A DNA stretch of 64,000 nucleotides from the NCBI GenBank assembly GCA_964642505.1, contig CAZXQY010000003.1, positions 324 to 64,323 on the forward strand. Reading direction: 5' to 3'. Below, piece by piece: positions 466-57,313 of the stretch. A program made the position numbers and the translations under genes. The stretch is from an uncultured Gammaproteobacteria bacterium (GTDB lineage: Bacteria > Pseudomonadota > Gammaproteobacteria > Ga0077536). Position 1 is the stretch's first letter. Each line of letters starts with the position of its first letter. Under the pieces are notes generated by a model that ran no database searches, was not told the origin of the DNA, and saw only the letters and a program-made list of their open reading frames with translations.

Positions 466-519
466 AAGACTGGACATAGATGAAAGAAAAAAATAAATAC
501 TAAGCGAGATTTCCATATA

Positions 520-1053
520 ATGATTCTAAAAACGGTCTATGGGTTTCTCAAAGCGATCAAGGAACCCATGGAAACCACCCTTCAGAAATCGGGCTCACTA
601 ATTGGTGGGCTTCTCATTTTGATGGTGTCTTTGACTTTTTACGATGTGGTCATGCGATATGTCTTCAACGCAGGCTCGGTGGGAACGCAAGAACTGGAAT
701 GGCATTTATTTGCGGCCATATTCCTGCTAAGTGGTGCTTATACTTTAAGAGAAGATCAGCACGTGAGAGTAGATGTGTTCTATCGAAGTAAATGGTTTTC
801 AAAACGAGCACAGGTCGGAGTTGATATTTTCGGAACTGTTTTTTTCTTAGTGCCATTCTGTCTAGTAGTAATATGGACATCAATACCTTTCGTTTACGAC
901 GCCTATCTGCATAGCGAGATGTCTCCCGATCCAGGGGGACTAAAGTATCGGTGGATAGTTAAATCTATGATTCCTTTTGGGTTTTTTTTGTTATTACTCC
1001 AAGGGTTAATGAGTATTGCGGACAGGTTACCCGTCTTGTTTAAACAGAAATGA
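520..1053 (+). CDS. TRAP transporter small permease (DctQ-like)
   Basis: 177-aa protein with four TM helices. It overlaps the downstream large-permease gene by 4 nt, the usual DctQ-DctM arrangement. Confidence 0.8.
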   Translation: MILKTVYGFLKAIKEPMETTLQKSGSLIGGLLILMVSLTFYDVVMRYVFNAGSVGTQELEWHLFAAIFLLSGAYTLREDQHVRVDVFYRSKWFSKRAQVGVDIFGTVFFLVPFCLVVIWTSIPFVYDAYLHSEMSPDPGGLKYRWIVKSMIPFGFFLLLLQGLMSIADRLPVLFKQK

Positions 1054-4426: not shown

Positions 4427-5704
4427 CTACAGGATATAACCTCTTTCATTATGTTCAGCTATATCCAGGCCTTTAGACTCATCCTCATCGGAAGCTCGTA
4501 AACCATTTATAGCCTCTACTACTTTTAAAATGACGAAAGTAACAACTGCACACCAAACTATAGTAGCGAATACTCCTATCACTTGAACCTTAAGTTGCGA
4601 GCCCATAGCCATACCATCCCGATAGCCGGCACCACCGTATTCCGCTGCAACAAAAACTCCTGCCAGAATACAACCGAGCATGCCGCCGACACCATGTACA
4701 GGAAAGACATCTAAAGAATCATCTATTTTTAAGGTTCTCTTGATGGATTGTGTAGCAAAATAACAGACGACACCAGCAGCTAATCCTATAATCAGACCTC
4801 CCACCGGACCCACATATCCAGACGCTGGAGTAATAGTACCTAGACCAGCAACCATTCCAGTCACGATGCCTAATACGCTTGGTTTTCCATATCTGAGCCA
4901 CTCTATAGTCATCCATGCCAGAGAAGCTGCAGCCGCAGAAATGTGTGTAACCAGCATCGCCATACCGGCGTCATTATTTGCCGCTACAGCGCTGCCAGCA
5001 TTAAAGCCGAACCACCCAACCCAAAGCATTGATGCGCCCATAACAGTTATTGTTAAGTTGTGAGGCGGCATTGGAGTATCTGGAAACCCTTTTCGATTTC
5101 CCAAAACCATCGCTGCTACTATCGCCGCCACGCCCGCATTAATATGTACGACAGTTCCGCCAGCAAAATCAAGGAAGTTCTTATCCCCTAACCAGCCTCC
5201 GCCCCAAACCCAGTGGCATACGGGCGCATACACCAAAATTAACCAGAACACGCTAAACAGTAGTACCGAAGAAAATTTCATCCTCTCAGCAAACCCACCT
5301 ATGATAAGGGCTGGTGTGATAATCGCAAAGGTCATCTGAAACATCACGAAAACCGTCTCAGGAATTGAGCCGCTCATGCTGTCTTTAGCCACATCAGTGA
5401 GAAATAAATTACCCGACCCTATAAAAGCGTTGTATTTTCCCCCATCGCCAAACGCCAATCCATAACCCACTGCCATCCACACAATTGACATCAAGCAAGC
5501 GAGAGCAAAACATTGCATTAACACCGACAACACATTTTTACTGCGAACCAGTCCGCTATAAAAAAGCGCCAAACCCGGCAAAGTCATGAACAATACTAAA
5601 GCTGTCGACGTCAACAACCAAGCACTGTCACCCGTATCGATGGTATCCCCAAAAGCCGATCCCGACGACAGAAATACAGTTAAACCAAGAATTAAACGAA
5701 ACAT
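4427..5704 (-). CDS. amtB: Ammonium transporter AmtB (with N-terminal signal peptide)
   Basis: Amt/MEP family signatures (DFAGGTVVHINAG, GxxxGNRKG). Start placed at MFRLILGLTVFLSSGSAFG (signal peptide). Directly downstream of glnK. Confidence 0.9.
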   Translation of the reverse strand: MFRLILGLTVFLSSGSAFGDTIDTGDSAWLLTSTALVLFMTLPGLALFYSGLVRSKNVLSVLMQCFALACLMSIVWMAVGYGLAFGDGGKYNAFIGSGNLFLTDVAKDSMSGSIPETVFVMFQMTFAIITPALIIGGFAERMKFSSVLLFSVFWLILVYAPVCHWVWGGGWLGDKNFLDFAGGTVVHINAGVAAIVAAMVLGNRKGFPDTPMPPHNLTITVMGASMLWVGWFGFNAGSAVAANNDAGMAMLVTHISAAAASLAWMTIEWLRYGKPSVLGIVTGMVAGLGTITPASGYVGPVGGLIIGLAAGVVCYFATQSIKRTLKIDDSLDVFPVHGVGGMLGCILAGVFVAAEYGGAGYRDGMAMGSQLKVQVIGVFATIVWCAVVTFVILKVVEAINGLRASDEDESKGLDIAEHNERGYIL

Positions 5705-23540: not shown

Positions 23541-23641
23541 GAATTCCCCTTCCGTTTAAACGCGCAACCGCGTCCGAGCTCCTCTTCGACGGGGCGGCAG
23601 CTAGTGGTCTTAAGTCCAACAGTAGCTCCTAATTCTGTTTT

Positions 23642-23712
23642 TGGGGGATCGTCTAATGGTAGGACAGCGGACTCTGACTCCGCCAGTCTAGGTTCGAATC
23701 CTAGTCCCCCAG
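23642..23712 (+). tRNA. tRNA-Gln (anticodon CTG)
   Basis: Cloverleaf folded by hand: acceptor TGGGGGA/TCCCCCA, anticodon loop CTCTGAC, T-loop GGTTCGAATCC. Close to E. coli glnV. Confidence 0.85.
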
Positions 23713-23877
23713 GCATTTACAAGTGAGAAGCGGCTCTGGAAGCACACCCAACGAACGCTAATTAATGAATAAATCCACTCTTTCTGGTAATTTCAACTTG
23801 TTAGTTGTAATTTATTTAGTATAAATAATATTTGAAATTAATTATCGCCTTTTGTCACTTTAGCTAAGGGGAAGACT

Positions 23878-45418: not shown

Positions 45419-45505
45419 CGGAGAGGGAGGGATTCGAACCCCCGGTCCGGTTACCCGGACAACTGATTTCGAGTCAGCCCCATTCGACCGCTCTGGCACC
45501 TCTCC
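45419..45505 (-). tRNA. tRNA-Ser (anticodon CGA)
   Basis: The reverse complement folds as a class II tRNA. Acceptor GGAGAGG, anticodon loop CUCGAAA, long variable arm GTCCGGGTAACCGGAC, T-loop GGTTCGAATCC. Close to E. coli serU. Confidence 0.85.
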
Positions 45506-49880: not shown

Positions 49881-52800
49881 TTACCAGACATCAGGATACC
49901 TGGACAGTCGTCTCTTTTTACGTGAGAGTTTGCTCGACCACAAACCCATCAAAAGCCAATCACCCGTATCTCTACGATCAATCACGGCGTCAACATCAAA
50001 GGCGGAGGCGACCGAAACACCCTTCCCCTTCGCATACATGCTTTCAAGTAGACTATCAAAAATCGATTTTCTTTCCCTTTCATTCATCGCACCATCTAGC
50101 TCCTTGCGAAAACCCAATTCCACCGCACCTTCTAAACCCATCGGGCCCATTTCTGAAGTAGGCCACCCTATCGTAAAAAAAGGCTGATGGAAACTACCAC
50201 CTGCCATAGCTTGTGCACCTAGACCATAGCCTTTACGCAAAACAATTGTAAAAAGAGGAACGGATAAATTGGCACTAGCCGTTATCAACCGGGAGCCTCT
50301 ACGCACGGAAGCCGTCTCCTCGCTGGCAGGGCCTACCATGAAGCCTGGAGTATCACATAACGAGATAACCGGCAGGCCAAAGCAATCGCATAATTGAAGA
50401 AACCTCGCCCCCTTCTCTCCCCCTTCGCCGTCGATGGCGCCTCCAAGGTGGGTAGGGTCATTCGCAATCAGCCCAAAAGAATGACCCTCTATTCGCAGTA
50501 GGATAGTAAGCAAACCGATTCCATAATCTCTTCGTAACTCAATAACCGAGCCCTCGTCGGCCAAATTTCTTATTAGCTTTCTGATGTCATATACCCGTAA
50601 TCGGTCCTCAGGGATTATGTGCCTGAGGATTCTTTGATCCGAAAAATCATAATGCTCTAATTTCCCTTGAAAATATCCGAGTATTTTTTTGGCCTTATCG
50701 GTAGCATCTGATTCATCTTTGCATAGCAAGTCGATAACACCATTCTTACTTTGCGTGTCGGACGGTCCGATATCTTCGGATTTGAATTTCCCCAACCCCC
50801 CGCTTTTATCTATCATCGCAGGTCCGGCCAGACCAATATTGGAGTTTTTAGTCGCTATCGTGATATCCGCACACCCGAAAATAACAGCGTTACCAGCGAA
50901 GCACCTACCTGAATTGATCGCTATCCTAGGCGCAATCCCCCCAAGTTGAGGCCAAGTGGCGAACGTCTTTATATCCAACCAACTCATGATTAGATCGTCA
51001 GTATCCACGTCACCGGGTCGACCTCCTCCTCCTTCCGTAAAAAAGACCACAGGAGTCTCCCAGTCACGCGCTAATTCGAAAATTCTATCCTTTTTTTTGT
51101 GGCTATTATGCCCCTGCGTACCGGCCAATACTGTGTAGTCATACGCCAACACGGCACACTTGGCCCTGTCCTCACCAAAATGTGTACTGTTCACGGTTCC
51201 AAAGCCAGCTACCAAGCCATCAGCAGGCGTCGCGATCTGCAGTTCGTCTACACTCCTTCTACGTCTTTGAGCTGCTATCGCCAAAGCTCCGTATTCCAAG
51301 AAACTATCCTCGTCACATAAGTCGTCGACATTCTCGCGCGCAGTCCTCGATCCGATTTTCCTTCGCTTAGCAACCGCCTCACCTCTCTGCTCGTCCATAA
51401 CCAAAGAGTGGCGAAAAATAACTTCCTTCAAATCAGCGCGAATATCGTCCAGATCGATTTTATCGTCACTGTGTATACTTTCGTTCATCCGGCTATCGAC
51501 TGCTAACTCGATGACTGGTTGACCTGTATCTATTACCTCACCCTCGTGTACCTTTATCCGCTTGATTAACCCGGACGCAGGCGCTTTTATTTCGTGATGC
51601 ATTTTCATCGCCTCGACAATTAAAAGCGTCTGTCCTTCCGAAACCACTTGATCTTCTTCTGATGGAATCTTTACTACGTTCCCCCTCAGCTGAGCTTCTA
51701 TCGTAACTAGCCCTGAGCCAGCGATTTTTGAATTTCTAACATCCGACCCGATTCTCTCTTGCTCGCTACCCTTCTTCCGTGAATCTTTTACAATTTCGTC
51801 TATATAAGAGGTCGTGAACTCCGCATTTACCACACCTTGCCGCTTCATAAGCTCCATTAGAAAATCAATATTTGTGTCTACTCCACGGACTTCGAATTCG
51901 GACAGCGCTCTAATGCCTTTACGGAGTAAAGACGACAAATCGCTTTCCAAGTTATGGACGATTAACTTGGCTAAAAGGGAATCAAATTCCCCACTTACTT
52001 CAAAACCCTCACGAACACCTGGGTCTACTCTGATTCCGATACCAAGCGGCGCTCGAAATTTAGACACCACCCCGGTCGACGGAAGAAAACTTCCTGCGGA
52101 ACTAAGTTTTTCCGCATTTATACGCATTTGGACGGCGCTGCCCGCAGGTTTGTCGCGCTTAGTTATCAGAACATCATCTAGCTTTTCACCTAATGCCAAT
52201 TGCAACTGAACTCGCGCCAAATCTATGCCATAAAGCATCTCCGTAATGGTATGTTCGACCTGCAATCTGGCATTTACTTCGATAAAATAGAATCTGCCTG
52301 ATCTTGGATCTACCATGAATTCCACCGTCCCGACACCCCTATATCCAACCGATCGTGCAAGACTCAAAGCGCCATCGAAAAGCTGACTTCTCATCTCTTC
52401 AGGTAGAGAAGGAGCCGGAGCTAACTCGACAATTTTTTGACGATTCCGTTGCAAACTACAGTCTCGCTCGCCTAAATGTTCCACTTGACCATTCCCGTCG
52501 CCTACCACTTGAACCTCAATGTGACGGGCACCTTCAAAAAACTCCTCGATATAAACGTCTCCTGAGCCAAAAGCATGTTTAGCTTCTTCACAAGCCAATA
52601 AAAACGCGGCTTCCAAATCGGTTTCGGCATCGATCACTCGAATACCTCTGCCTCCTCCTCCAGCAACCGCCTTGAGCACAAAAGATTTATTGGAGGGACA
52701 CTTCCGAATATAACTTTCCAAATCACCGGGATTTCGGAGCACGGCTGAACCATCTAATATTGGAAGCCCAACCTTCACGGCCTGAGATCGAGCCGATAAC

Positions 52801-53150
52801 TTATTTCCGAACAGCCTGAGCTGAGAAACGGTCGGGCCCACCCATGTGATACCAGCGTTCTCCATTTGCTCGGCAAAATCGGCACTCTCTGACAAAAATC
52901 CATAACCGGGATGAATAAGATTACAATCGAATTTCTGCGCCGCAGAAAGTATCGCTGACGTATTTAAATAGGCTGCCGCTCCTTGGCCAGAAATTTCCAC
53001 TGAATTTCCCTGCGAGAAAAGCACATGGGATGCAAACCTGTCCGACTCACAATGTACCGCAATAGCTTTCAGATTCAGATCATGTGCCGACTGCAAAACT
53101 CGCAACGCAATTTCGCCTCTATTAGCTACTAGGACCCGAGCATCAGACAT
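49881..53150 (-). CDS. Single-chain multi-domain biotin-dependent carboxylase (biotin carboxylase, then biotinyl/BCCP domain, then carboxyltransferase)
   Basis: N-terminal ATP-grasp BC domain (VLVANRGEIA...), a central biotinylation motif (LLIVEAMKMHHEIKAPASG), and a C-terminal crotonase-superfamily CT domain (acyl-CoA carboxylase β-like). Total length 1096 aa. Confidence 0.85.
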   Translation of the reverse strand: MSDARVLVANRGEIALRVLQSAHDLNLKAIAVHCESDRFASHVLFSQGNSVEISGQGAAAYLNTSAILSAAQKFDCNLIHPGYGFLSESADFAEQMENAGITWVGPTVSQLRLFGNKLSARSQAVKVGLPILDGSAVLRNPGDLESYIRKCPSNKSFVLKAVAGGGGRGIRVIDAETDLEAAFLLACEEAKHAFGSGDVYIEEFFEGARHIEVQVVGDGNGQVEHLGERDCSLQRNRQKIVELAPAPSLPEEMRSQLFDGALSLARSVGYRGVGTVEFMVDPRSGRFYFIEVNARLQVEHTITEMLYGIDLARVQLQLALGEKLDDVLITKRDKPAGSAVQMRINAEKLSSAGSFLPSTGVVSKFRAPLGIGIRVDPGVREGFEVSGEFDSLLAKLIVHNLESDLSSLLRKGIRALSEFEVRGVDTNIDFLMELMKRQGVVNAEFTTSYIDEIVKDSRKKGSEQERIGSDVRNSKIAGSGLVTIEAQLRGNVVKIPSEEDQVVSEGQTLLIVEAMKMHHEIKAPASGLIKRIKVHEGEVIDTGQPVIELAVDSRMNESIHSDDKIDLDDIRADLKEVIFRHSLVMDEQRGEAVAKRRKIGSRTARENVDDLCDEDSFLEYGALAIAAQRRRRSVDELQIATPADGLVAGFGTVNSTHFGEDRAKCAVLAYDYTVLAGTQGHNSHKKKDRIFELARDWETPVVFFTEGGGGRPGDVDTDDLIMSWLDIKTFATWPQLGGIAPRIAINSGRCFAGNAVIFGCADITIATKNSNIGLAGPAMIDKSGGLGKFKSEDIGPSDTQSKNGVIDLLCKDESDATDKAKKILGYFQGKLEHYDFSDQRILRHIIPEDRLRVYDIRKLIRNLADEGSVIELRRDYGIGLLTILLRIEGHSFGLIANDPTHLGGAIDGEGGEKGARFLQLCDCFGLPVISLCDTPGFMVGPASEETASVRRGSRLITASANLSVPLFTIVLRKGYGLGAQAMAGGSFHQPFFTIGWPTSEMGPMGLEGAVELGFRKELDGAMNERERKSIFDSLLESMYAKGKGVSVASAFDVDAVIDRRDTGDWLLMGLWSSKLSRKKRRLSRYPDVW

Positions 53151-53259
53151 ACAATCTTCCTTTAATATCAAGTGGTATAGACTAAGCTAGCTTATCTTCA
53201 CTCGACTTTCAAAATTTCGGGTTATTATAGCCGCCCTCATAACGGACTTAATAATGCGG

Positions 53260-53336
53260 TGGCGCGCCCGGAGAGATTCGAACTCCCGACCACCTGGTTC
53301 GAAGCCAGGTACTCTATCCAGCTGAGCTACGGGCGC
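53260..53336 (-). tRNA. tRNA-Arg (anticodon TCG), CCA encoded
   Basis: The reverse complement folds as GCGCCCG...anticodon loop CUUCGAA...CGGGCGC-G-CCA. The backbone is almost identical to E. coli argV. Confidence 0.85.
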
Positions 53337-53364
53337 GCAGAAGATAAATCATCTATTCACTATT

Positions 53365-53441
53365 TGGCGCGCCCGGAGAGATTCGAACTCCCGACCGCCT
53401 GGTTCGTAGCCAGGTACTCTATCCAGCTGAGCTACGGGCGC
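53365..53441 (-). tRNA. tRNA-Arg (anticodon ACG), CCA encoded
   Basis: Same scaffold as the neighbouring copy, but the anticodon loop reads CUACGAA and there is one variable-loop difference. Confidence 0.85.
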
Positions 53442-53639
53442 TTATTCTAAAATGTGCCATTACTCTCGGTTGCCTGAGATTATCATCGCCATAAAACCCG
53501 CTGTCAAATACTCTAAAAGCAAAGCCAAGAAAAATAAACTTAAGTTCCCGAAGCAACTAATTTTACTACCTAATAACTAGCATCATTGGTCTAGCGGAGC
53601 TACACTCTGCATTATAGAGACAAAGCAAGGGGTAGTTTT

Positions 53640-54398
53640 GTGAGGAAAAACATAGACATTAACTGCGATATGGGTGAAAGCTTTGGCAATTGGATTATGG
53701 GTGACGACGAAGGCATGATGTCTAGGATAACCACTGCGAACGTAGCGTGCGGCTTCCACGCGAGCGATCCGGTAACCATGGTCAAAACTGTGGCACTGGC
53801 TAAAAAACATGATGTTGTCGTGGGCTCACACCCTGGCCTGCCTGATCTTCTCGGGTTCGGTCGCCGGGCTATGAATATTACACCGGAAGATGCTTACGCC
53901 TATATGGTGTATCAAACCGGAGCTCTGGAGGCGACTCTTAAAACGCAAGGGATGAACCTCCATCATGTCAAACCTCATGGGGCTTTTTATTCGATCTTGA
54001 GAGACAACGAAGAAGTAGCATCTGCCGTTGCTGAAGCGATAGCTTCTTTGTCGACCGCACCCATCCTTTATTGGCCCGCTCCGACTTCTGCAGCGCTGCC
54101 CGCTGCGGCAAATAAGTTGGGAGTGAAAGTGGTAGGAGAAATCTATCCCGATCTACAGTACGCGTCTGACGGCTCCTTGATAATTCAACGAGAAAAACAT
54201 TTAACAGACACAGTTTTCGCTTCAAAACAAGTTGAGCGGTACGTTGAAACAGGAAAAGTGGAAGCCACAGATGGAAGCTTGTTGCAGCTGGATGCTGAAA
54301 GCATCTGCATCCATGGGGACGGGCCTAATGCGACCGAAGTGGCCGATGCCATACGAAAAAGGCTACACGATTTGGGCTGTGAAATTAACGCCGCGTGA
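53640..54398 (+). CDS. pxpA: 5-oxoprolinase subunit A (LamB/YcsF family)
   Basis: DINCDMGES...ACGFHASDP...HVKPHGA motifs. GTG start. Confidence 0.85.
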   Translation: MRKNIDINCDMGESFGNWIMGDDEGMMSRITTANVACGFHASDPVTMVKTVALAKKHDVVVGSHPGLPDLLGFGRRAMNITPEDAYAYMVYQTGALEATLKTQGMNLHHVKPHGAFYSILRDNEEVASAVAEAIASLSTAPILYWPAPTSAALPAAANKLGVKVVGEIYPDLQYASDGSLIIQREKHLTDTVFASKQVERYVETGKVEATDGSLLQLDAESICIHGDGPNATEVADAIRKRLHDLGCEINAA

Positions 54399-55479: not shown

Positions 55480-56448
55480 TTAAAAAAGGTCACGAATGCG
55501 TTCCAGTCGACCCTCTTCATCAAGCCTCGCCTGAAGAGCCTCTTCCATTGAAACTTTTACAAATTTTACAGGGGTATTTGGTTGTAGTTGTCCAAGAATA
55601 TCCATGTCTGCAGAAATAACCGCTCCGATCTGAAAATAGCCGCCGGCAGACACCGCGTCCCTATGTAATACGATAGGTTCAAGCCCCGAAGGAATTTGAA
55701 CAGAACCATACGGATATGGACTATCAACTATGTTGGAAGGATCTGAACCAGCGCCAAAGGGTTGATCTCTAGGCTCAAACTCCATTGGGCGACCTCCTGA
55801 AAATCGAACTCCCATCCGATCTGCCTCGGTAGAAACTACCCAACGATCTTCAAAAAAGCCCTCCCCCGAGGTTTTTGTCAAACGGTGCCAGAATAAACCT
55901 GGCATAACTCTCAAATTAGCGGCCTCTCCCATGGTGCGTCTTAGCTCTTCTGGAATATATCGGCATTTACTTTTTAGATCACCCTGACCACAATGCAGGA
56001 CATCTTCAGCTACCAGTATTCTACCGTGAAAGCCTCCCAGCTGCCCTACCAAATATGTCGACCGACTGCCCAGCACCAAAGGTACATCTACCCCACCCGA
56101 CACAGCTATATAGATCCGCGCTCCACCCTTGAGGTAGCCAAATTCCAAAACTTGTCCTGCCTTAACTTCGATAGCAGTCCAAGTCTGATGCTCCTTTCCA
56201 TCCAAGCACACGGGAAGGTCAGCCCCAGTGACAGACACGAGGGTATCTGTATCAAACAGTAATCTAGGACCGATGTAGGGGCTCTCTATACAGGCCGCCG
56301 ACTCGTCGTTGCCAACCAAGAGATTAGCCACACGCAACGCGAAGCGATCCATTGCCCCTCCGATAGGAATCCCCAACTGATAATATCCAGGTCTCCCTAG
56401 ATCCTGAATCGTTGCTGCCAATCCTGCTTCCAAAATTTTAATTGCCAT
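55480..56448 (-). CDS. pxpC: 5-oxoprolinase subunit C (KipA/allophanate-hydrolase-subunit-2 family)
   Basis: MAIKILEAGLAATIQDLGRPGYYQLGIPIGGAMD N-terminus and cyclophilin-like fold family. Confidence 0.8.
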   Translation of the reverse strand: MAIKILEAGLAATIQDLGRPGYYQLGIPIGGAMDRFALRVANLLVGNDESAACIESPYIGPRLLFDTDTLVSVTGADLPVCLDGKEHQTWTAIEVKAGQVLEFGYLKGGARIYIAVSGGVDVPLVLGSRSTYLVGQLGGFHGRILVAEDVLHCGQGDLKSKCRYIPEELRRTMGEAANLRVMPGLFWHRLTKTSGEGFFEDRWVVSTEADRMGVRFSGGRPMEFEPRDQPFGAGSDPSNIVDSPYPYGSVQIPSGLEPIVLHRDAVSAGGYFQIGAVISADMDILGQLQPNTPVKFVKVSMEEALQARLDEEGRLERIRDLF

Positions 56449-57313
56449 ATAGGGCACCTATGAGACCAGCATTATATCCATCCCTATCAGCCAAAAAAGC
56501 AGACAAATCAAAACGTATCTCCACTCGGGGTGGCTCGAACAAATTGTTCCGAACCAGATCCACTATATGCTCATATTCTTCCACATCTATAGCACGAAAC
56601 TTTACAATGTCTCCGGTACGGAAAAATACCATCGAACCTTCCAGATAAGATTGATGACAATCGGGATTGAAAATTTGCATAGGGGTTATTCCAAACATTT
56701 GATACCCCCCAGCACCTCGCACGGCATAGATAGCTGTAAAACAACCACCATGCCCAATTGTATGCCTGGGAGTATCAGTTCTTGGCCGGACATATTTGGG
56801 TACTTCAATCTGTCTAGAGCGTTCCACCATTTGGTACAATCCCGGGACGCCGCAAACAAACCCAAGAAGTGAAACAAACCAAGGGGAACCGTGATGGCTT
56901 TCTATAAACTCCGTTACAGATGAAAAACCATTGAGCCTAGCAGCATATTCTAGGTCTGTTGAATCAGGATCTTGATGTCGATCTCTAAAACTATTCATCG
57001 TTTCTCTCGTCCAAGGATCTTCGTAAAAAACTGGCACCTCAACAATCCTCGTGTCTATTGAATTACCAGTTAACCCAGATTCATTATCGATTCTCTTTAT
57101 TTCTTTTAATAATTCTTCCGGGCTAATAAGACCCGGATCAAATCGGACCATATACGTGGTGTTTACCGCGCAAATCTCTGATACTCCCGTAATCTTGTGC
57201 TTTCGTATCAACTCGGCAGCATTCATGCTTTTAAAAAATGCCTCTAAAGACATTTCCTCGGAACACTCCCCTAAAAGGTGTTCATCTGCTCCGAAAGTAA
57301 AACGCGTCTCCAT
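56438..57313 (-). CDS. pxpB: 5-oxoprolinase subunit B (KipI/allophanate-hydrolase-subunit-1 family)
   Basis: AHS1/KipI family. Its 3' end overlaps the pxpC start, consistent with translational coupling. Confidence 0.75.
   Translation of the reverse strand: METRFTFGADEHLLGECSEEMSLEAFFKSMNAAELIRKHKITGVSEICAVNTTYMVRFDPGLISPEELLKEIKRIDNESGLTGNSIDTRIVEVPVFYEDPWTRETMNSFRDRHQDPDSTDLEYAARLNGFSSVTEFIESHHGSPWFVSLLGFVCGVPGLYQMVERSRQIEVPKYVRPRTDTPRHTIGHGGCFTAIYAVRGAGGYQMFGITPMQIFNPDCHQSYLEGSMVFFRTGDIVKFRAIDVEEYEHIVDLVRNNLFEPPRVEIRFDLSAFLADRDGYNAGLIGALYGN

Follow-up and report, generated by a model that had tools for sequence, protein, structure and literature searches.

An old tRNA-Arg(UCG) gene and its probably secondarily similar tRNA-Arg(ACG) neighbour in an uncultured gammaproteobacterium

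The best explanation for two adjacent, nearly identical tRNA-Arg genes in the DNA of an uncultured, probably marine, gammaproteobacterium, one that we hold with good confidence, is that they form an ordinary two-gene operon supplying both isoacceptors of the CGN codon box, in which the UCG gene is old and the ACG gene has become UCG-like secondarily, with gene conversion as the likely route. The original prediction, made from the window (the whole 64-kb stretch of DNA analysed here), was that a recent duplication had been followed by a change of A34 to T. This is contradicted by the age of the TCG gene and its occurrence in many species, by the unrelated flanks of the two copies, by the synteny of the locus, and by signs that the ACG gene is the copy that changed.

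Anatomy, expression and decoding of the gene pair

Both genes lie on the minus strand and are transcribed from right to left, so that the ACG gene comes before the TCG gene (Table 1); the original prediction had left the strand unstated. ARAGORN and Rfam (gathering score of the tRNA model RF00005, 29) agree on two tRNA-Arg genes, each of 77 nt and with an encoded CCA, as had been claimed. A repeat search of the locus gave a single direct repeat of exactly 77 nt with a spacing of 105 nt, and either tRNA half used as a query found 2 matches in the window against about 0.01 or fewer expected by chance. In minimum free energy folds the acceptor, anticodon and T arms of both genes fold as expected. 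Pairwise alignment is free of gaps and gives 75/77 identity, with mismatches at gene positions 35 and 45, which, because of a D-loop nucleotide 20a, are nucleotides 34 and 44 in standard numbering. This bears out the claim that the copies differ only in the first anticodon base and one variable-region base. Nucleotide 34 is the wobble base, A in the ACG gene and T in the TCG gene; nucleotide 44 (C and T, respectively) is the first base of the variable region and the partner of nucleotide 26, giving A26-U44 in the TCG gene and A26/C44 in the ACG gene.

Table 1. Coordinates of features at the tRNA-Arg locus of the window
Feature	Coordinates	Strand	Remarks
Fused biotin carboxylase/biotin carrier/carboxyltransferase	49881..53150	(-)	1089 aa from the ATG at 53150; start 109 nt downstream of the TCG gene
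tRNA-Arg(TCG)	53260..53336	(-)	second in transcription order; ARAGORN; Rfam RF00005, 68.2 bits
Inter-tRNA spacer, AT-rich	53337..53364	(-)	28 bp; no relation to the outer flanks
tRNA-Arg(ACG)	53365..53441	(-)	first in transcription order; ARAGORN; Rfam RF00005, 64.3 bits
Sigma-70-like promoter, TTGACA-17 nt-GATAAT	53479..53507	(-)	11/12 matches; ends 37 nt upstream of the ACG gene; putative function
pxpA (5-oxoprolinase subunit A)	53640..54398	(+)	NCBIfam NF003814, 289 bits; divergent from the tRNA pair

The arginyl-tRNA synthetase (ArgRS) identity set of E. coli comprises A20, C35, G36 (or U36) and A or G at position 73. Reading of the two sequences places A20 (in the D-loop AGCUGGAUA), C35, G36 and G73 in both genes. 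By cloverleaf models and identity elements both class as bacterial tRNA-Arg, and charging with arginine is predicted. ARAGORN finds four tRNA genes in the window, which also holds a tRNA-Gln(CTG) at 23641-23714 and a tRNA-Ser(CGA) at 45419-45505. Both are C34 'auxiliary' isoacceptors, indicating a fairly rich tRNA set despite a G+C content of the source DNA of about 44%. Non-self matches to UvrA begin at 79% identity and continue at about 70%; those that carry a name are all metagenome-assembled Gammaproteobacteria, several of them from marine data.

That the T at position 34 is a sequencing or assembly error, or that the TCG copy is a decaying pseudogene, is exceedingly improbable. The single-base nature of the difference is all that speaks for an error, and the T is found in three strain-level assemblies and in three other organisms, with identical bases throughout, so that an error was rejected and the T/A difference taken as genuine. 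Two other metagenome assemblies, L001 (99.78%) and L002 (99.87% identity to the window, in both cases over 6.8 kb), carry the same ACG/TCG pair, and the window-type PxpA protein is encoded on three ENA metagenome contigs from three samples; the pair also occurs in the three other organisms, represented by loci L034, L124 and L125/L136. As to a pseudogene, the TCG gene has the better Rfam score of the two (Table 1) and is perfectly conserved across species.

The intergenic region upstream of the pair contains a single promoter-like site (Table 1), and L034 and L125 also have the motif TTGACAG...GATAATC ahead of their ACG genes. Between or after the tRNA genes, within 53100-53700, no terminator-like site is predicted. 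Judged from the promoter match and the lack of a predicted terminator, the two tRNAs are likely to be co-transcribed; one promoter (at about 53507-53479) would drive tRNA-Arg(ACG) and then tRNA-Arg(UCG).

The anticodon loop of the ACG copy, CUACGAA (C32-U33-A34-C35-G36-A37-A38), is identical to that of E. coli argV. The ACG tRNA is presumed to be a substrate of TadA, which would deaminate A34 to I34 and so give an ICG anticodon; the TCG copy has no A34 and so cannot be a TadA substrate. By the wobble rules, ICG reads CGU and CGC and, inefficiently, CGA, and UCG reads CGA and CGG. The UCG tRNA would thus pair directly with CGA and CGG, relieving the weak I-A wobble, and would possibly do the job of tRNA-Arg(CCG) in E. 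coli. No tRNA-Arg(CCG) gene was found within the 64-kb window, and none of tadA, argS, cmoA/B or mnmE/G was found among its 48 ORFs. In these ORFs CGA is the commonest CGN codon (CGA 179, CGT 122, CGG 96, CGC 77); it makes up 38% of CGN codons, compared with 19-32% for A-ending codons in the other four-fold boxes. Such usage fits CGA being read by a cognate UCG tRNA, and the suggestion that this tRNA should read CGA and CGG directly appears likely.

Distribution and age of the tRNA-Arg(UCG) gene

One genome per GTDB species was scanned for the anticodon arm with a non-A wobble base (TAGAGTACCTGGCTBCGAACCAGG), which returned at least 120 loci. All 120 listed have the TCG anticodon; a complete tRNA-Arg(TCG) was called by ARAGORN in 117, and the other 3 are cut by the end of the locus. 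The window TCG gene is matched at 77/77 positions in at least 13 other GTDB species (13-14 among the matches listed), including genomes of Woeseiaceae, Chromatiaceae and Rariloculaceae. Close variants, most of them 1-6 positions off, occur in at least some 100 more genomes, mostly of uncultured Gammaproteobacteria. Among the matches listed, carriers of such variants include Steroidobacteraceae, Granulosicoccaceae, Poriferihabitaceae, Coxiellaceae, Legionellales and others, and more divergent TCG versions are found in Chlamydiae, Bdellovibrionota, Saccharimonadia and others. The anticodon arm was itself the search pattern, so its uniformity reflects the search, which is not true of the identity of the other 53 nt.

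The variable region begins with T (U44) in 88 of the 117 complete genes among the matches listed, and with C in 6. The window TCG gene fits this conserved type, with the arm CCUGG-CUUCGAA-CCAGG, U44 and an Arg-type D-arm, as found in many species. An adjacent ACG gene is rare: among the matches listed, 95 TCG loci have 400 nt or more of flank on each side, and only 2 of them (L034 and L080) have such a neighbour. In a large set of environmental lineages the TCG gene is the normal UCG isoacceptor and usually stands alone, and in the window it is the canonical tRNA-Arg(UCG) of the lineage, a circumstance that the original prediction had itself named as speaking against a novel isoacceptor.

The isoacceptor had been described as uncommon in gammaproteobacteria. 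This holds for E. coli-type models (to our knowledge E. coli has no UCG isoacceptor and cultured enterobacteria have no tRNA-Arg(TCG)); it does not hold for environmental lineages, the scan having given at least 120 loci, most of them labelled Gammaproteobacteria. A MAG contig labelled 'uncultured Klebsiella sp.' carries a tRNA-Arg(TCG) (L116, 734-810) and is probably mis-binned or mislabelled.

Both tRNA-Arg(UCG) and its gain from ACG genes are already in the literature. Among 319 bacteria surveyed by Wald & Margalit (2014, PMC4041420), 239 had ACG and CCG, 24 had ACG and UCG, and 26 had ACG, CCG and UCG; in two cases a UCG gene was described as having arisen from an ACG-type gene by anticodon mutation. 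In that survey, as in the window, UCG stands alongside ACG for the CGN box, and since such gains are known, the ACG-like body of the window UCG gene is to be expected. The pair also has the near-identical paralogues with different anticodons (75/77) that mark a new isoacceptor in scenario iii of the survey (PMC4041420). The accompanying marks, an anticodon confined to the lineage and a gene closest to its own paralogue, are not seen, given the 77/77 identity across at least 13 species. Unlike the gains in the survey, the window TCG gene is no gain at the tip of the tree, being unchanged in many species.

In Mollicutes, tRNA-Arg(UCG) has been proposed to originate from duplication of an ACG gene and an A34-to-U34 change (Yokobori et al. 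2013, PMC3711424). There, as in the pair described here, UCG supplements ACG, which makes CGA and CGG easier to read. However, the Mollicutes case is tied to reduced genomes that have lost tRNA-Arg(CCG) and in which TadA has degenerated or disappeared (PMC3711424), whereas the ACG gene of the window organism, a gammaproteobacterium of free-living type, looks normal. A Vibrio cholerae tRNA paper considered as a further precedent was rejected, as 'UCG' there denotes a serine codon and not the arginine anticodon.

Synteny of the locus in relatives

In the window, L034 (a marine single-cell genome) and L124, the gene order is the same: an LLM oxidoreductase gene and pxpA, then the ACG and TCG genes, then the carboxylase gene. 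Both tRNA genes of L034 and L124 are identical to those of the window; their 31-bp spacers are alike and share with the window spacer its start (AATAG) and end (TTCTGC). The pxpA-ACG adjacency is found in L034, L125, L141/142 and L145/146, and the TCG-carboxylase adjacency in L034, L124, L069 and L125/L136. The order in L125/L136 is pxpA, then ACG, queC, queE and TCG, then the carboxylase gene, and in L069 it is queC, queE and TCG followed by the carboxylase gene. The genes queC and queE, which are queuosine-precursor genes, thus lie inside the tRNA locus (2366-3763 in L125, 16-1382 in L069), and in this group the ACG and TCG genes stand 1.5 kb apart, with queC-queE between them.

A neighbour-joining tree of the carboxylase groups the window with L034 and L124, as (window,(L034,L124)), and places ((L125,L136),L069) as the sister clade. 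Amino-acid identity of the carboxylase to that of the window is approximately 63-64% in L034/L124 and approximately 54% in L125/L136, the latter also being the value between the clades. Since both tRNA genes occur in clades only about 54% identical in their carboxylase, they predate the split between the window clade and its sister clade. No tRNA gene was found at the carboxylase locus of the outgroups L126 and L127. The difference in queC-queE could be a deletion in the window's clade or an insertion in the sister clade, so that the direct adjacency of the tRNA genes arose either by juxtaposition through loss of queC-queE or as an ancestral state later split by insertion. Under either polarity the pair is no fresh tandem duplicate.

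A recent tandem duplication of tRNA-Arg(ACG) in the window organism, followed by an A34-to-T change that created a new UCG isoacceptor, is therefore very unlikely, even though no more than 2 of 77 positions set the genes apart and just 28 bp lie between them, and although the mechanism is documented elsewhere (two gains in PMC4041420) and has been proposed for Mollicutes (PMC3711424). At least 13 other species have the TCG gene in identical form, U44 included, and it occupies this locus even in relatives with a carboxylase of only 54-64% identity, the two genes are separated by 1.5 kb in the sister clade, and the copy that departs from its orthologues is the ACG gene and not the TCG gene.

Nor do the flanks resemble those of a segmental duplication, in which the copies share flanking sequence and the second copy is missing from the locus in relatives. 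The flanks of the two copies have no similarity, diverging at the first base outside the mature tRNA, and the TCG gene is present at the locus in L034, L124, L069 and L125/L136. When the spacers of the window, L034 and L124 were set against the outer flanks, no duplication scars appeared, only the chance resemblance of AT-rich sequence. The lack of flank similarity, together with the greater age of the gene pair, agrees with its not being a fresh tandem duplicate. A search of the 64-kb window for further 5' or 3' fragments of tRNA-Arg, with up to 3 mismatches, found none, so that there is no sign within 64 kb of an island carrying the TCG and carboxylase genes having been inserted at the ACG gene; a genomic-island boundary at that gene was rejected as unsupported. 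Near-identical neighbouring tRNA genes need not be young.

Several other features of the locus and its relatives were observed. The 2.5-kb contig L003, from a third sample, is 99.3% identical over pxpA and the ACG gene. Comparison of its positions 1-1410 with window positions 53260-53441 shows that a hairpin terminator and an enoyl-CoA hydratase gene come after the window-type ACG gene, in place of the TCG and carboxylase genes, and the break falls directly past the tRNA 3' end, not within the repeat. L003 seems to be a structural variant at the strain level, affecting the sequence past the ACG gene. A phage-type integrase gene is found in L145 (3537-4427), immediately downstream of the pxpA-linked tRNA-Arg(ACG) and of its interrupted tRNA-like copies; the integrase gene beside the tRNA suggests that the pxpA-linked tRNA-Arg(ACG) is an integration hotspot in relatives. 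Genes resembling pxpB and pxpC are found near pxpA in the window (55480-56457 and 56438-57313), and the fused carboxylase lies beside them. In L128-L133 the match to the carboxylase is limited to its C-terminal half, and the fusion may accordingly be specific to the clade. A perfect 12-bp palindrome, TAAGCTAGCTTA, lies at 53183-53194, in the interval from the TCG gene to the start of the carboxylase gene; it is kept in L034 and L124, not in L069 or L125, and may be an operator of the carboxylase gene.

Interrupted tRNA-Arg-like copies with an insert in the T-loop occur at L059 (approximately 1727-1945), L081 (approximately 5329-5575) and L083 (approximately 495-700, minus strand), beside tRNA-Arg(ACG) in L139/L140, L141/L142 and L145/L146, and also in L012, L039, L082 and L092. 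The insert consists of one to three modules of 73-83 nt, made up of four short GC-rich hairpins, and begins exactly after GGTTCGA; beyond it the sequence resumes with AATCC and the 3' strand of the T-stem. Upstream interrupted copies have the full tRNA 5' part, a duplicated 5' flank and a degenerate 3' end, and downstream copies have a degenerate 5' part, some of them with a perfect 3' acceptor strand, CCA and a terminator. The first hairpin of the insert, framed by GTTC...GGAC, varies in sequence by lineage with its pairing kept. Inserts accompany ACG as well as TCG genes, in several families of Gammaproteobacteria, and are missing from the window. The module matched no Rfam family, a literature search on the element found nothing relevant, and alignment of the inserts with MAFFT and RNAalifold misaligned the variable hairpins. 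The insert may represent a structured RNA, or else a small mobile or recombination-site element for which the tRNA-Arg T-loop is the target.

Direction of change between the two genes

The window, L034, L124, L069, L125 and L136 all have one and the same TCG gene sequence. The ACG gene of L125/L136 differs from that of the window at 5 positions, namely nucleotide 44 (G) and two T-stem base pairs, the T-stem being GGAGG/CCTTC as against GGGAG/CTCTC in the window. The ancestral state was surveyed at loci of PxpA homologues with 74-76% identity. A tRNA-Arg(ACG) gene is found upstream of pxpA and divergent from it in L141/L142 and L145/L146, and one gene further off in L139/L140; no TCG gene was found near the pxpA-linked ACG gene in any of these loci. 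The ACG genes of L125, L139, L141/142 and L145/146, and also of L047, have GGAGG/CCTTC together with G44. E. coli argV has the similar T-stem GGAGG/CCTCC. The TCG-type T-stem, GGGAG/CTCTC, is found in the ACG genes of the window, L034, L124 and L003. That GGAGG/CCTTC is common to the pxpA-linked ACG genes of relatives marks it as the ancestral ACG type. Since four further lineages with a pxpA-linked ACG gene have this T-stem, it was the ACG gene that changed in the window's clade, towards the TCG sequence, and not the TCG gene.

Clusters of tRNA genes are known to undergo concerted evolution and gene conversion. In E. coli the serV-argV-argY-argZ-argQ array contains closely spaced, near-identical and co-transcribed tRNA-Arg genes, all with the ACG anticodon. 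The window pair resembles this array in its closely spaced, near-identical tRNA-Arg genes and in having the same D-arm and anticodon loop, and the order Ser(GCT)-ACG-TCG in L080 recalls serV-argV; it differs in that its second gene is UCG and no tRNA-Ser lies upstream. In L080 the ACG gene shares the T-stem of its TCG neighbour, independently of the window clade. In the separated pairs of L125 (1.5 kb apart) and L047 (5 kb apart) the T-stems are not shared. Across four independent pairs, therefore, the 2 adjacent ones share a T-stem and the 2 separated ones differ. As in other cases of concerted tRNA evolution, the adjacent paralogues have derived T-stem states in common that are missing from their orthologues elsewhere; unlike those cases, the window genes keep different anticodons, and conversion is deduced here from four genome pairs.

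On this pattern, gene conversion between adjacent copies is most likely the cause of the TCG-like T-arm of the ACG gene. Two observations argue against a single conversion tract: C44 of the ACG gene matches neither the ancestral ACG gene (G) nor the TCG gene (T), and the shared T-stem in L080 is broken by a T-loop difference. This T-loop difference would also suit a process of convergence, in which the ACG T-stem changed by independent compensatory substitutions, for instance under selection on EF-Tu affinity, with no transfer between the genes, and so would the variation of TCG-gene T-stems among lineages (GGGAG/CTCTC in 45, GGGGG/CCCTC in 36 and GGAGG/CCTTC in 18, among the matches listed). 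However, convergence would require four substitutions to land exactly on the neighbour's sequence, and to do so twice, in the window clade and in L080. Both of these cases are directly adjacent genes, and neither of the two separated pairs has a shared T-stem; we consider convergence unlikely.

Alternatively, the pxpA-linked ACG gene could have been replaced by a copy of the TCG gene, which then underwent T34-to-A and T44-to-C changes, making the present ACG gene the derived one. The window-clade ACG gene does carry the TCG-type T-stem at both distinguishing base pairs, and just two point changes from the TCG gene are required. Its promoter and its linkage to pxpA are nonetheless conserved with relatives of the ancestral type, favouring conversion of a resident gene, and the flanks bear no duplication scar, so that a replacement of this kind seems quite unlikely. 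As a broader proposal covering both routes, we tentatively suggest that the 3' half of the window-clade ACG gene was overwritten by TCG sequence, through conversion or through replacement with a U34-to-A34 reversion, with selection keeping the anticodons distinct, and that this may accompany ICG and UCG decoding and the preference for CGA in environmental Gammaproteobacteria. If true, the overwriting of an ACG gene by a UCG gene would be concerted evolution between isoacceptors, in the direction opposite to the usual ACG-to-UCG change.

With conversion as the preferred reading, the near-identity of the two genes would have two sources. Part of it would be ancient, arising from a shared body and the same ArgRS identity set, the UCG gene being an old and very slowly evolving isoacceptor inherited across many environmental Gammaproteobacteria. 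The other part would be secondary, the 3' half (T-arm) of the window-clade ACG gene having taken on the TCG sequence, probably by gene conversion, during which selection would keep the two anticodons apart.

The gene pair is a conserved and ordinary part of the translation apparatus of its lineage, of a kind already described, and in itself matters little; the value of the analysis lies in correcting a plausible story of recent duplication. That the ACG gene is TCG-like only where the two genes are adjacent offers a modest, testable example of isoacceptors evolving in concert. More broadly, tRNA-Arg(UCG), absent from E. coli-type models, is a standard and highly conserved isoacceptor in many uncultured Gammaproteobacteria, which is useful for annotation, for models of codon usage, and for the heterologous expression of genes from lineages that carry it.
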